A DNA stretch of 64,000 nt, taken from NCBI GenBank assembly GCA_965203445.1, contig OZ241883.1, positions 2,208,001-2,272,000 on the forward strand, read 5' to 3'. Made by a program: the position numbers and the translations under genes. Shown piece by piece: positions 13,580-64,000 of the stretch (its first letter is position 1; every line of letters starts with the position of its first letter). The notes below the pieces were generated by a model that made no database searches, was not told where the DNA came from, and saw nothing but the letters and a program-made list of their open reading frames with translations. The DNA comes from Candidatus Oxydemutator sp. (GTDB taxonomy: Bacteria > Pseudomonadota > Gammaproteobacteria > Poriferisulfidales > Oxydemutatoraceae).

Positions 13580-14893
13580 TCAAGTGCGCAGACCGGCACC
13601 AGCGCGGCCGTCGCGCACCGCGACGCGGCCGAAGCGTTTTTGCAGTCTCCGCAGCGCGATCTCTCCCAGCTCGAAGCGCAGGCTCCAACCCTCGTCCGGA
13701 ACGTAGCGCTCGCTCAGGATGCTGCCGTTGTCGTAGAGGAAAGCGCGCAAGGCGGGGGCGCCGACCGGCACGTCGAGCCGGTAGATGCGCCGACGCGGCG
13801 ACAGTTGCTCGTGCAGGGCCCGTTTGAGCAAATCCAGCCCCTGCCGCGCCAGCGCCGACAAGCGCACGCCGGCGACGCCGGCACGCGCGCCGTTGCCGCG
13901 CACCAGGCACGGCTGCTCGCCGATGCGATCTATCTTGTTGAACACGTTGATCTTCGGGATGCCGGCGGCGCCGATCGAGGCGAGCACCACCTCGACCTGG
14001 TGGCGGCGTTCGGCGCAGTCCGGATCGGAGGCGTCCTCGACGTGCACGATCAAGTCGGACTCGCGCACTTCCAGCAGCGTCGCATTGAACGCCTCGACCA
14101 GTTCGTGCGGCAGATTGCGGATGAAGCCGACCGTGTCGCCGATCAACACGCCGCCGCCGGGAAGATTCACCTTGCGAACGAGCGGATCGAGCGTCGCGAA
14201 CATCCTGCTCTCGCCGTCGGCGCCGGATTCGGTCAGCGCGCGGAACAGGGTGGATTTGCCGGCGTTGGTGTAACCCACCAGCGCGACCGAGAACAGCGCG
14301 TTCTTGCGGCGCCGGCGCCGGCGCTGCCGACGCTGGCGCTTGATGCGCTCGAGCTGGCGCGCGATGCCGTCCATGCGCCGGCGCAGGAGACGGCGGTCGG
14401 TCTCGAGCTGCTTCTCGCCGGGGCCACGCAGGCCGATGCCGCCCTTTTGCCGCTCGAGGTGGCTCCAGCCACGCACAAGGCGCGTCGAGAGGTACTCGAG
14501 CTGCGCCAGTTCGACCTGCAACTTGCCCTCGTGCGACTGCGCCCTCTGCGAGAAAATGTCCAGTATCAGGCCGGTGCGGTCGAGCACCCTCGCCTGGATG
14601 CGGCTTTCGAGGTTGCGCTCCTGCCCCGGCGTCAGGTCGCGGTCCACAATCAGCAGACGCACGTCGTTTTCACGCACCCATTGCCGAACCTCCTCGGCCT
14701 TGCCGCTGCCGATGAAGTAGCGGGGATCGGGGCGGGTGCGACGCGCGCGCATCAAACCGCGACTCTCTACGCCAGCAGACGCGGCCAATTCGACAAACTC
14801 ATTTAGACCGCGCCGCCCGCCGCGTGCGCCGACGGCAACGGACATCAGCAACGCCGCGCTGCGGTCAGCGGCGGCGGCGGTTTCGTCCGTCAT
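13580..14893 (-). CDS. hflX: Ribosome-splitting GTPase HflX
   Basis: GPGEKQLETDRR, GYTNAGKST, FATLDP, DTVGFI, NKID. Confidence 0.96.
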   Translation of the reverse strand: MTDETAAAADRSAALLMSVAVGARGGRRGLNEFVELAASAGVESRGLMRARRTRPDPRYFIGSGKAEEVRQWVRENDVRLLIVDRDLTPGQERNLESRIQARVLDRTGLILDIFSQRAQSHEGKLQVELAQLEYLSTRLVRGWSHLERQKGGIGLRGPGEKQLETDRRLLRRRMDGIARQLERIKRQRRQRRRRRRKNALFSVALVGYTNAGKSTLFRALTESGADGESRMFATLDPLVRKVNLPGGGVLIGDTVGFIRNLPHELVEAFNATLLEVRESDLIVHVEDASDPDCAERRHQVEVVLASIGAAGIPKINVFNKIDRIGEQPCLVRGNGARAGVAGVRLSALARQGLDLLKRALHEQLSPRRRIYRLDVPVGAPALRAFLYDNGSILSERYVPDEGWSLRFELGEIALRRLQKRFGRVAVRDGRAGAGLRT

Positions 14894-14917
14894 CGGCCTC
14901 CATGGGGGGCATCATAT

Positions 14918-15424
14918 GGGAATTATATACATGACACCATCGAGTGGTACCGTGTATCCATTTGACGTTCCACCAGATGAGTCGCCCCTCCGGTTTTACC
15001 ACGTCCAGCAGCCCCATTCCCGAAGGCCAATATGTTCCATGCGGTATTCACGTCCGCATTATCCCGATAGCCGCACGTGAAATCCCGGGCGGCCGCCCTC
15101 CTTCTTGAAGAATTGCCGGTATGCCGTCTCTATAGGCTTCAACGACTGCCGCACTATCGCCATGGAATACTCCTGCAACCACGTATCCTCGTCCCTGCGC
15201 AACGACGTGAACCGCTTTCCCAGGGAATAAAACCGGTAATGGCACTCGTTATGCGTGGCGTACTCGCCACGCAACTTGGCCACAAAATGGTTCCACACGA
15301 ACCGGCACGCACCGGCGGTGCCCGCCAACTTGCGCGCCTTGGCCTGCGTCTGCGTGTGCAGCCGATAGCCGATTGTCCGGTGTGTCTTCATTCAATCTCG
15401 TTTGATGGTATCAAATATATTCCC
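14918..15424 (-). mobile_element. Internally deleted non-autonomous tnpB element with terminal inverted repeats and a perfect 8-bp TSD (CATCATAT)
   Basis: Ends GGGAATTATATACATGAC and ...TCAAATATATTCCC; CATCATAT at 14910-14917 and 15425-15432; both ends homologous to 61902-63187. Confidence 0.9.
15059..15391 (-). pseudogene. tnpB: Truncated tnpB (N-terminal ~104 aa joined out of frame to the 3' end)
   Basis: MKTHRTIGYRLH...AYRQFFKKEGGRPGFH matches the N-terminus of ORF 61938; the central RuvC-I/II-coding part is deleted. Confidence 0.88.
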
Positions 15425-15454
15425 CATCATATCACTTCTCAAGGCAGCAGTACG

Positions 15455-15625
15455 CTTGGAGCGTCGTGGCGGGAGTCTGACGAATACCTGAAGCACGCGG
15501 GCAGAGAACACTGCTGCACCTACCCGCGTCGTCCGAAGAGGAACGCCCGAAGAGGAATACACCGGGAAAGCGCTTCAACTTCAACCCGGCAGGAGGAGTT
15601 CGCGGATTACCAGGAACATGGATTG
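15455..15625 (-). ncRNA. Candidate structured small RNA or leader (unassigned)
   Basis: Minus-strand stems CCGGG/CCCGG and ACGCGGGTAG/CTGCCCGCGT; CU-rich CTCCTCC and 2x TTCCTCTTCGG; no credible ORF. Confidence 0.3.
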
Positions 15626-15725
15626 TTTGTGGCCCCATACATACACTTTATTTCTGGCGGCGTGGCCATTATGATAGCAGCCCGAACGGGGTGGCGCGCC
15701 GCCACGACCCAAGCCAGAGACGACG

Positions 15726-61081: not shown

Positions 61082-61901
61082 ATGGATAACTTGATAGAGA
61101 CCATCGAACGCGCGTTCGAGGAGCGCGATACGATCACGCCGGCGGACGCGCCGCCCGAAGTGACGGCGGCGGTCGAGCGCTGCCTGGCGGGGCTTGACGA
61201 CGGCAGTCTGCGCGTCGCCGAGAACAGCGACGGCACATGGCGCGTTCACGAGTGGCTGAAGAAGGCGGTGCTGCTGTCGTTCCGGCTGTTCGACAACCGC
61301 GTCACCGACGCCGGCTACACGCGCTTCTACGACAAAGTGCGCCTCAAATACGCGCACCACGACGAGGCCGCGCTGAAGGCAAGCGGCGTGCGCGTCGTGC
61401 CGGCGGCAATCGCGCGCTACGGTTCCTACCAGGCGCCGGGGGTCGTGATGATGCCCTGCTACGTCAACGTCGGCGCCTACGTCGGGCGCGGGACGATGGT
61501 GGACACGTGGGCGACGGTCGGATCGTGCGCCCAGATCGGCGCCAACGTCCACCTGTCCGGCGGCGTCGGCATCGGCGGCGTGCTCGAACCGTTGCAGGCG
61601 GCGCCGACCATCATCGAGGACGACTGCTTCATCGGCGCGCGTTCCGAAATCGTCGAGGGCGTCATCGTCGAGCGCGGCGCGGTCGTCTCGATGGGCGTCT
61701 ATATCGGGCGCAGCACGCGCATCTACAACCGCATGACCGGCGAAATCGGCTACGGGCGGATACCGGCGGGCGCGGTCGTCGTGCCCGGCAATCTGCCGGC
61801 GGCGGACGGCAGCCACAGTCTGTACTGCGCCGTCATCGTCAAGCAGGTGGACGAGAAGACGCGCGGCAAGGTCGCGCTCAACCAGCTGTTGCGCGATCCT
61901 G

Positions 61902-61918
<17 letters not shown>
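61082..61918 (+). CDS. dapD: Tetrahydrodipicolinate N-succinyltransferase; last codons supplied by the inserted element
   Basis: [33 protein letters not shown]; stop lies within the left TIR. Confidence 0.96.

Positions 61919-64000
<2,082 letters not shown>

Follow-up and report, generated by a model that had tools for sequence, protein, structure and literature searches.

A protein-dead tnpB derivative upstream of hflX keeps a conserved omegaRNA-like module within a family bounded by IS1595-type ends

A 507-bp sequence found directly upstream of an hflX-like gene in the genome of a Candidatus Oxydemutator species derives by internal deletion from a tnpB-only insertion sequence (IS) and is protein-dead. 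It occupies positions 14918-15424, minus strand, of the 64,000-nucleotide stretch analyzed here (contig OZ241883.1, positions 2,208,001 to 2,272,000), which is hereafter called the window and to which coordinates refer unless the genome is named. The tnpB family represented by this copy is bounded by IS1595-type terminal inverted repeats (TIRs) with 8-bp, AT-rich target-site duplications (TSDs). Moreover, a 3' module of ~155 nt, which overlaps both the 3' end of tnpB and the right TIR, has conserved, covarying helices across 88 copies from several phyla. The reading that we favor, at a probability of roughly 0.6, is that the 507-bp sequence is a deleted copy within a family of IS1595-ended tnpB elements moved in trans, and that it keeps a full omegaRNA (obligate mobile element-guided activity RNA) scaffold, possibly loaded by TnpB supplied in trans.

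ANATOMY OF THE DELETED ELEMENT

The element was delimited by two pieces of blastn alignment to full copies, and by the TIR motifs and the 8-bp duplication at its bounds. The sequence CATCATAT is present both at 14910-14917, adjoining the right end, and at 15425-15432, adjoining the left end, with an agreement of 8/8 that is expected by chance once per 65,536 pairs. In the orientation of the element this duplication reads ATATGATG. The right-end TIR (14918-14943, minus strand), which is GGGAATTATATACATGACACCATCGA when read inward, is intact, and its last six bases form the 3' arm of a proposed pseudoknot. The left end (15392-15424, minus strand; GGGAATATATTTGATACCATC) has a degenerate TIR, the first 24 nt of which align with the right one only when three gap positions are introduced.

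The interior consists of about 105 N-terminal tnpB codons (15076-15391, minus strand), recognized from the list of open reading frames (ORFs), Pfam and tblastn, joined to the last 158 nt of the element. In blastn against the full-length copy in the window (61902-63187), two separate stretches align, with element positions 5-349 matching full-copy positions 8-373 at 74.7% identity and positions 350-507 matching 1129-1286 at 88.6% identity. The ~755 bp in between (full-copy positions 374-1128) have therefore been lost, and with them the parts that code for RuvC-I and RuvC-II. The junction, TTCACG/TGCGG at 15076/15075, is preceded by 105.3 codons and corresponds to aa 364 of the full-length protein. 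Because the frame shifts at this point, the remnant ORF (15059-15391, minus strand, 110 aa) continues for five foreign, out-of-frame codons and then stops. The ORF matches the N-terminal Pfam domain HTH_OrfB_IS605 (E 8e-8), and tblastn over aa 1-114 gives 66.7% identity. On the NCBIfam TnpB models it scores as a fragment, with 39.2 bits on NF040570 (cut-off 100) and 50.8 bits on NF038281 (cut-off 425), and hence stays below the curated cut-offs for full-length TnpB. The RuvC-III codons are still present out of frame, and the D, E and D residues of a RuvC domain are not encoded as a set. The copy is short, with TIRs and a TSD and with no transposase, and so has some of the traits of a miniature inverted-repeat transposable element (MITE). 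A MITE would also be expected in several copies, and this deletion form is present once in the genome.

Most of this anatomy had been described correctly in the initial annotation, which was made from the sequence alone. It gave a 507-bp copy with a perfect TSD, ~104 N-terminal codons at about 70% aa identity, the same junction, a retained 3' segment of ~160 nt, and a loss of ~750 bp including RuvC-I/II, and all of these figures hold. Its statement that both TIRs are kept is correct for the right end and needs to be qualified for the degenerate left one.

THE 3' MODULE IS A CONSERVED STRUCTURED RNA

Among the 13 full-length copies in the genome, synonymous-codon identity is 0.45-0.65 over most of the tnpB gene, is 0.69-0.71 at aa 356-366, and climbs to 0.76-0.90 from aa 379 to the end. 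When the last 152-177 nt of 22 full copies are aligned with MAFFT, RNAalifold returns a consensus of 31 pairs, of which 13 have compensatory changes, and some of these changes fall on synonymous sites within the RuvC-III codons. A covariance model (R1) was built from this 22-copy alignment, whose members include the full copy in the window. Cmsearch with R1 yields exactly two significant matches in the window, namely the full copy with 135 bits and the deleted copy with 126 bits (E 3e-34, model positions 1-155 of 155). The deleted copy thereby has a complete, omegaRNA-like scaffold module of 158 nt, at 14918-15075 on the minus strand, that includes the right TIR. Full copies that were not used for training reach 85-111 bits, and in every listed copy the match stops precisely where the element ends.

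In the 88 model-aligned copies, 93.2% of cells are paired versus 79.8% in shuffles (a level that 0/500 of these reach), and double-sided changes are seen in 22 of the 35 pairs; slid controls pair in 32-45%. The scaffold of the deleted copy differs from that of the window's full copy at 18/158 positions and keeps 31/35 pairs, compared to 30/35 in the full copy, with one GC-to-AU double change. The deletion junction is located 15 nt upstream of the first covarying stem. In addition, pairing is possible between the loop GGGAAU of the second stem and the AAUUCCC that closes the element, with 92.4% of cells paired, and one pair of this pseudoknot is represented by 57 AU, 11 CG, 6 GU and 10 unpaired cells. 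The pseudoknot arm is thus located right at the end of the transposon. Rfam scans of both copies, with E values up to 10, gave chance-level matches only.

Like known omegaRNAs, the module is encoded from the 3' end of tnpB to the right transposon end and has a secondary structure backed by covariation. We infer that it serves as an omegaRNA scaffold, with a guide that would start at or just inside the right-end duplication. The earlier claim that the whole guide-RNA scaffold was retained is supported by the end-to-end model match, and structural conservation of the 3' segment across copies, which had been named as a check, was indeed found.

THE tnpB FAMILY HAS IS1595-TYPE ENDS

The inverted repeats at all copies start with GGGAATTATATA, followed by ~12 bases that are specific to the subfamily. 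All 18 listed elements in the genome have TIRs, and their 8-bp duplications are perfect in 10/18 and match at 7/8 in two. An outside sample of 80 related tnpB loci was drawn entirely from metagenome-assembled genomes (MAGs) of Gammaproteobacteria, Thermodesulfobacteriota, Dadabacteria, Poribacteria and others. Among the 79 loci that gave a usable match, 63 have both end motifs; of these 63, 36 have a perfect 8-bp duplication and 6 more have 7/8. The duplications are AT-rich in own and outside elements alike.

The same ends and an 8-bp duplication border a 2616-bp element (genome 1978350-1980965) whose transposase, a protein of 314 aa (genome 1979910-1980851), has the domains DDE_Tnp_IS1595 (E 1e-43) and Zn_ribbon_IS1595. 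This is the sole IS1595 transposase domain in the genome, which is complete (2.38 Mb, one contig), and the terminal 12-13 TIR bases of its element are common to the tnpB copies. This element also has a passenger ORF of 436 aa that, by eye, resembles a DNA methyltransferase fused to an HNH motif. Outside this genome, 80 IS1595-transposase loci were collected, and 28 of them passed a filter of at least 20/24 for the TIRs and at least 7/8 for the duplication. Several have inner TIR sequences equal to those of particular tnpB-element subfamilies, and tnpB was found within the same element in 0/80 loci. A search for Y1 TnpA (PF01797) gave 0 matches in the complete genome, and its control matched 6/14 named genomes.

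A member of the IS1595 family, ISApl4, is reported to make A/T-rich 8-bp repeats (PMC12561309), and IS200/IS605 and IS607 elements are described as having neither TIRs nor duplications (PMC13565253). The tnpB family therefore departs from IS200/IS605 in having TIRs and a TSD and in having no Y1 TnpA at hand, and it has what is expected of nonautonomous IS1595 elements, namely TIRs like those of transposase-bearing elements and an 8-bp A/T-rich duplication. Because the TIRs and duplications match those of IS1595 elements, and because the genome has no Y1 TnpA, these copies are probably tnpB-only cargo elements moved in trans by DDE transposases of the IS1595 family. The IS200/IS605 framework implied by the initial annotation was wrong, and it was a misfit from the outset because the annotation had itself recorded TIRs and a TSD, which IS200/IS605 elements lack.

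GUIDE POSITION AND FLANKING MOTIF

Because the 3' end of the module faces hflX, the would-be guide is the hflX leader. If it starts at the element end, its sequence would be ATATGATGCCCCCCATGGAG (14898-14917, minus strand), as judged from geometry, and it would cover the duplication and the ribosome-binding region of hflX. The genome holds no second perfect match to this sequence, and the sole target of the guide would be the vacated site upstream of hflX. For a guide starting after the duplication, a single 15/16 match at genome 383808 was judged to be due to chance.

Flanking sequences were compared for 50 nonredundant insertions, own and outside, with a duplication of at least 7/8 and oriented by tnpB. 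The base 5' of the duplication is a purine in 50/50 (32 G and 18 A), the preceding base is C in a single case, and the first duplicated base is A in 40/50, with no mirror bias at the other edge of the duplication. A motif of the form A-K-R/A-W-W thus straddles the 5' edge of the duplication, and the 507-bp copy agrees with it (GTG followed by ATATGATG). The motif is absent from 29 elements with an IS1595 transposase, whichever orientation is chosen (purine in 13/29 or 14/29, A in 8/29 or 12/29), and rough Fisher p-values for the comparison of tnpB with transposase elements range from 3e-9 to 1e-3. If the guide begins at or just inside the right-end duplication, then this flanking motif looks like a transposon-associated motif (TAM). 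With regard to the neighboring genes, a crude longest-ORF rule gives a co-directional downstream gene in 35/48 insertions (p 0.002) and a co-directional upstream gene in 25/48, but these counts are a hint only, given that the rule mislabels some genes in GC-rich flanks, such as dapE by the full copy.

DERIVATIVES THAT KEEP THE SCAFFOLD

In a relative from another genus (G006), which holds many decayed copies, four elements of ~181 bp at different sites consist of only the left TIR and the scaffold (60-86 bits). In these elements stem 1 is replaced by another hairpin, CAGG(U)/(A)CCUG. Because it was the scaffold that led to these elements, they do not show how often it is kept, but they are candidate guide-only MITEs and would make sense if the RNA is used in trans. 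The same genome has an independent deleted copy of ~267 bp (G006:C1:194321-197646, locus ~949-1210), of another TIR subfamily, that lies directly upstream of hflX in the same orientation, with its right end facing hflX. On the scaffold model this copy reaches 144.8 bits, and here too the junction coincides with the 5' edge of the scaffold. Its location may reflect convergence or an insertion hotspot.

Clustering of junctions just upstream of the scaffold was considered as a sign of selection and was dropped as evidence. Among copies found via the protein or the TIRs, the retained 3' lengths are 158, 211, 330 and 420 nt and longer, a 180-bp MITE keeps only ~60 nt of the 3' end, and a 163-bp MITE keeps TIRs only. 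There is no fair test of such clustering because the scaffold-keeping copies of the relative were found through the scaffold. A cognate protein for the deleted copy is on hand, since the full copy at 61902-63187 has the same variant of the fourth helix and a scaffold that is 88.6% identical, and thus use of the RNA in trans is plausible.

THE hflX SETTING AND THE AGE OF THE INSERTION

The hflX-like GTPase gene (437 aa, 13580-14893, minus strand) was taken from the ORF list and was named from the earlier annotation and from sequence motifs. Its start codon is 24 nt past the right end of the element, with which it is co-directional. On the other side, 293 bp lie between the left end and a divergent aminotransferase gene. 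The hflX transcript would thus have to cross the scaffold, unless its promoter lies in the last few bases. A promoter-like site that reads inward (15414-15442, minus strand), with its -35 sequence TTGAGA in the flank and its -10 sequence TATATT in the left TIR, has 10/12 matches but is weak, in that one such site was found where 0.6 are expected by chance. An outward promoter in the right TIR was also considered and was rejected, as TATAAT is present with a -35 sequence that is poor by eye, and the promoter scan made no call.

Just upstream of the left end, on the plus strand, is a relic of the transposase gene of another IS (15473-15629), recognized by nucleotide identity. Its 157 nt are 74-82% identical to the internal part of six other repeats in the genome, and by eye it appears to be a fragment of an rve-type IS transposase. 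The region upstream of hflX is a patchwork of IS debris, and synteny with relatives of the same genus is broken there.

These same-genus relatives match the hflX gene, and two of them (G001 and G003) have no element upstream of it. An exact empty site was sought in these two, but divergence of the region and the lost synteny with the aminotransferase gene keep the insertion boundaries from being placed base for base. Relative to the same two copies, the 5' half of the 507-bp element is 74.7-81.7% identical and the scaffold 81.0-88.6%. The two halves have different nearest relatives among the resident copies, and because no resident copy exceeds 81-89% identity to either half, the element is not a fresh derivative of a resident one. 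The perfect duplication says little about age, and the suggestion that this insertion is more recent than the full copy is unsupported. Evidence on age appears to be limited to the two same-genus relatives that have no element upstream of hflX.

WEIGHING THE POSSIBLE EXPLANATIONS

The favored reading can be laid out as a series of steps. DDE transposases of the IS1595 family would move the tnpB-only elements in trans, and the 3' module would serve as an omegaRNA scaffold with its guide beginning at or just inside the right-end duplication. The scaffold of the 507-bp copy is probably transcribed because it is within the hflX leader and co-directional with hflX. TnpB from a full copy would then load the RNA of the deleted copy, for which 61902-63187 has the nearest scaffold, and the loaded complex would recognize a vacant site upstream of hflX and help to retain the element after excision. 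The transcription step and the step of trans-loading and retention are the weakest in this chain.

Several observations weigh against it. The larger alignments (A2 and A3) were fitted to the covariance model, which biases pair counts toward that model, although the unfitted 22-copy MAFFT/RNAalifold alignment agrees in direction. Single-sequence folding energy is no better than that of shuffles (z -0.41 for the deleted copy and +0.10 for the full copy), and the case for a structured RNA is thus one of covariation and not of stability. In the pseudoknot, three of the six pairs have 10-14 unpaired cells. The flanking motif is low in information and may partly reflect insertion beside gene starts, and the Fisher p-values are rough because insertion sites are not phylogenetically independent. 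The inner TIR sequence of the resident transposase element differs from that of the 507-bp copy. Together with the degenerate left TIR, this difference means that the copy may no longer move, in which case a homing guide would be pointless. Nothing shows transposition after the deletion because the deletion form is single-copy. Finally, a recent review doubts that homing by TnpB benefits cut-and-paste DDE elements (PMC13565253).

Some of these observations are also what would be expected of an inert fossil, a decaying and immobile remnant whose scaffold is intact only for lack of time and whose RNA is unused. The degenerate left TIR, the lack of additional copies or any close relative in the genome and the nonsignificant minimum free energy z-scores all fit this description. 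So do the many decayed copies in the relative from another genus and the adjoining relic of another IS, which implies that the region upstream of hflX gathers debris. However, simple decay does not readily account for a scaffold that differs from its nearest copy at 18/158 positions and yet keeps 31/35 pairs, including the GC-to-AU change, nor for a stem 1 that pairs better in the deleted copy than in the full one. Furthermore, when measured against the same two copies, the 5' half is more diverged than the scaffold, and the ~181-bp scaffold-only MITEs keep the structure without any coding constraint. We therefore regard the inert fossil as unlikely, though still a serious contender. A remnant that is kept as a promoter or leader of hflX, and not for its guide RNA, is less likely still. 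The co-directional placement 24 nt upstream of the start codon, the promoter-like site across the flank and left TIR, the independent ~267-bp copy upstream of hflX in the other genus and the 35/48 count of right ends that face a co-directional gene would all suit such a cis-regulatory role. The promoter is nevertheless one consensus match at a chance-level frequency, two same-genus relatives have hflX with no element upstream, and the 35/48 count depends on the longest-ORF rule and its mislabeled flanks. A cis-regulatory role is, in any case, compatible with the RNA reading. An ordinary IS200/IS605 palindrome-associated transposable element (PATE) moved by Y1 TnpA has next to no chance of being correct and is already contradicted. 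The protein part matches TnpB models of the IS200/IS605 type, and there is a hairpin at the right end. Against these stand a hairpin that is confined to that end, a complete genome in which Y1 TnpA was not found, and TIRs with 8-bp duplications in 10/18 own and 36/63 outside elements, both of which are lacking in IS200/IS605 as described (PMC13565253).

The favored reading, that of a trans-moved derivative with a usable scaffold, might be extended to a three-tier parasitic hierarchy in which tnpB-only elements depend on the IS1595 transposase, and scaffold-only derivatives borrow both the transposase and TnpB. This extension is tentative, and is more apt to be wrong than right. In such a hierarchy the homing system of TnpB and omegaRNA would have been adapted to ends of the TIR/TSD type. 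The TIR terminus would form the pseudoknot, the guide would start at the duplication, the TAM would lie just 5' of the duplication, and the 507-bp copy and the 181-bp MITEs would constitute the third tier. If true, a purine at -1 plus an A at the first duplicated base would be the TAM of the clade, and insertions without the motif would be lost.

RELATION TO KNOWN SYSTEMS

TnpB is the ancestor of Cas12, and its accepted role, the re-cutting of the scarless donor joint, is tied to the chemistry of IS200/IS605 and IS607 elements. ISDra2 belongs to the Y1 elements, has a TTGAT TAM, and carries no TIR or TSD. Residues 7-388 of the TnpB encoded by the window's full copy align with ISDra2 TnpB (E 3.6e-10; solved structures 8bf8, 8exa and 8h1j), with low identity. 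As in the ISDra2 TnpB-omegaRNA system, the RNA overlaps the 3' end of the gene and the right end of the element. Unlike ISDra2, the family described here has TIRs and a TSD, and its scaffold matches no Rfam family.

The IS605 PATEs encode omegaRNAs that have been proposed to need TnpB in trans from other copies (Meers et al., 10.1101/2023.03.14.532601). The 507-bp copy is similarly protein-less and keeps the transposon ends and a guide-RNA module. PATEs differ in having subterminal palindromes, no TIRs or duplications, and mobilization by Y1 TnpA, whereas the 507-bp copy has IS1595-type TIRs, an 8-bp duplication and 105 dead codons. A closer parallel is offered by the six DDE-associated TnpB branches with inverted terminal repeats that have been described (Altae-Tran et al. 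2023, PMC10691335). In that description, the 3' end of tnpB is within 250 bp of the transposon end, and solo tnpB copies, which have the same ends as elements with a transposase, are taken to be mobilized in trans. The main text names IS630 only and does not mention IS1595, although the supplements may name this family. A 2026 review describes the association of TnpB with DDE transposons in prokaryotes as rare and lists ISL2, IS630 and IS1031 (PMC13565253). Like the members of these branches, the family studied here has tnpB inside inverted terminal repeats and solo copies that share the ends of a transposase element. Unlike the branches as named, it has IS1595-type ends, and tnpB was seen in 0/80 IS1595 loci.

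Elements that encode Fanzor proteins and have TIRs and TSDs are described as having the TIR as part of the scaffold and the guide in the flank past the transposon end, and the whole TSD is reported to be a part of the scaffold (PMC10711439). A pseudoknot arm at the transposon end resembles this geometry, as well as that of described right-end element RNAs (reRNAs). Unlike Fanzor elements, which are eukaryotic or viral, the tnpB family here is found in prokaryotes, and its guide would start at or just inside the duplication. Compared to the IS1595 family and its MITEs, for which ISApl4 is an example (PMC12561309), the tnpB elements have the same kind of TIRs and A/T-rich 8-bp duplications. They differ in their cargo, which consists of tnpB and a structured RNA with no transposase, and in an orientation-specific flanking motif that the transposase-bearing elements lack.

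Literature searches found no description of IS1595-type tnpB elements and no paper that links IS1595 with TnpB, with the proviso that the supplements of PMC10691335 may name the family. What is new here is the family context, with its IS1595-type ends, and the single copy is a fresh example of a known idea. On its own, the 507-bp copy carries modest stakes, as one more protein-less derivative that keeps its guide RNA, a notion already in print for PATEs. The family, on the other hand, is a compact case found in symbiont-like MAGs from several phyla. It combines defined TIRs and duplications with a well-supported RNA model in which the pseudoknot uses the TIR terminus, a candidate TAM straddling the duplication, and natural derivatives that have only the scaffold. 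It makes testable the question of what an RNA-guided nuclease does for a cut-and-paste element, and also whether guide-only elements can hijack such a nuclease.

RESIDENT COPIES AND THEIR SURROUNDINGS

The full-length copy in the window is 1286 bp long (61902-63187, plus strand), with tnpB at 61938-63182 (414 aa) and the scaffold at 63030-63187. Its duplication is degenerate (CGATCCTG and CGGTCTTG, 6/8), and its TIRs are identical at 25/30 positions. With 177.7 bits on the NCBIfam model guided_TnpB (cut-off 100), its protein is a member of that family, and the RuvC motifs GID, HLEKL and NADVNA, which hold the D, E and D residues, can be recognized by eye in the translation. A genome-wide count of full versus deleted copies, as had been proposed, gives 13 full-length and four partial copies, with protein identities to the window copy of 57.5-77.8% for the full-length ones. 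The tnpB ORF is intact in each of the 13 full copies, is 406-434 aa long, and ends within the right TIR, 5-19 nt from the element end.

These ORFs extend ~25-35 codons past the match to the family model, across the RNA module, in all 13 copies. The stop is a TAA within the TIR (TATATAA), for example at 63180-63182, and a co-directional host ORF often begins a few bases later, which raises the possibility of translational coupling between tnpB and the host gene downstream. The full copy in the window lies exactly between two co-directional genes that are, by eye, dapD and dapE (61840-63260). The upstream ORF enters the left TIR by 17 nt and ends there (...DPGELYI*), and a TTG at ~63193, inside the right copy of the duplication, fits the start of the downstream gene. 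The element may therefore have split an overlapping stop/start junction.

Other copies have nested or chimeric ends, as at genome 1431141-1432433 and 247590-248387. One resident copy has two successive left TIRs from different subfamilies, and a deleted copy of 786 bp, which is inserted against a further TIR-like motif, has a body and a right end that belong to different subfamilies. Lastly, the 12-base TIR motif occurs 133 times in the 2.38 Mb when up to two mismatches are allowed. Many of these occurrences are solitary and in intergenic-looking sequence, and they could represent small MITEs, solo ends or the chance occurrence of an AT-rich word that resembles a promoter.

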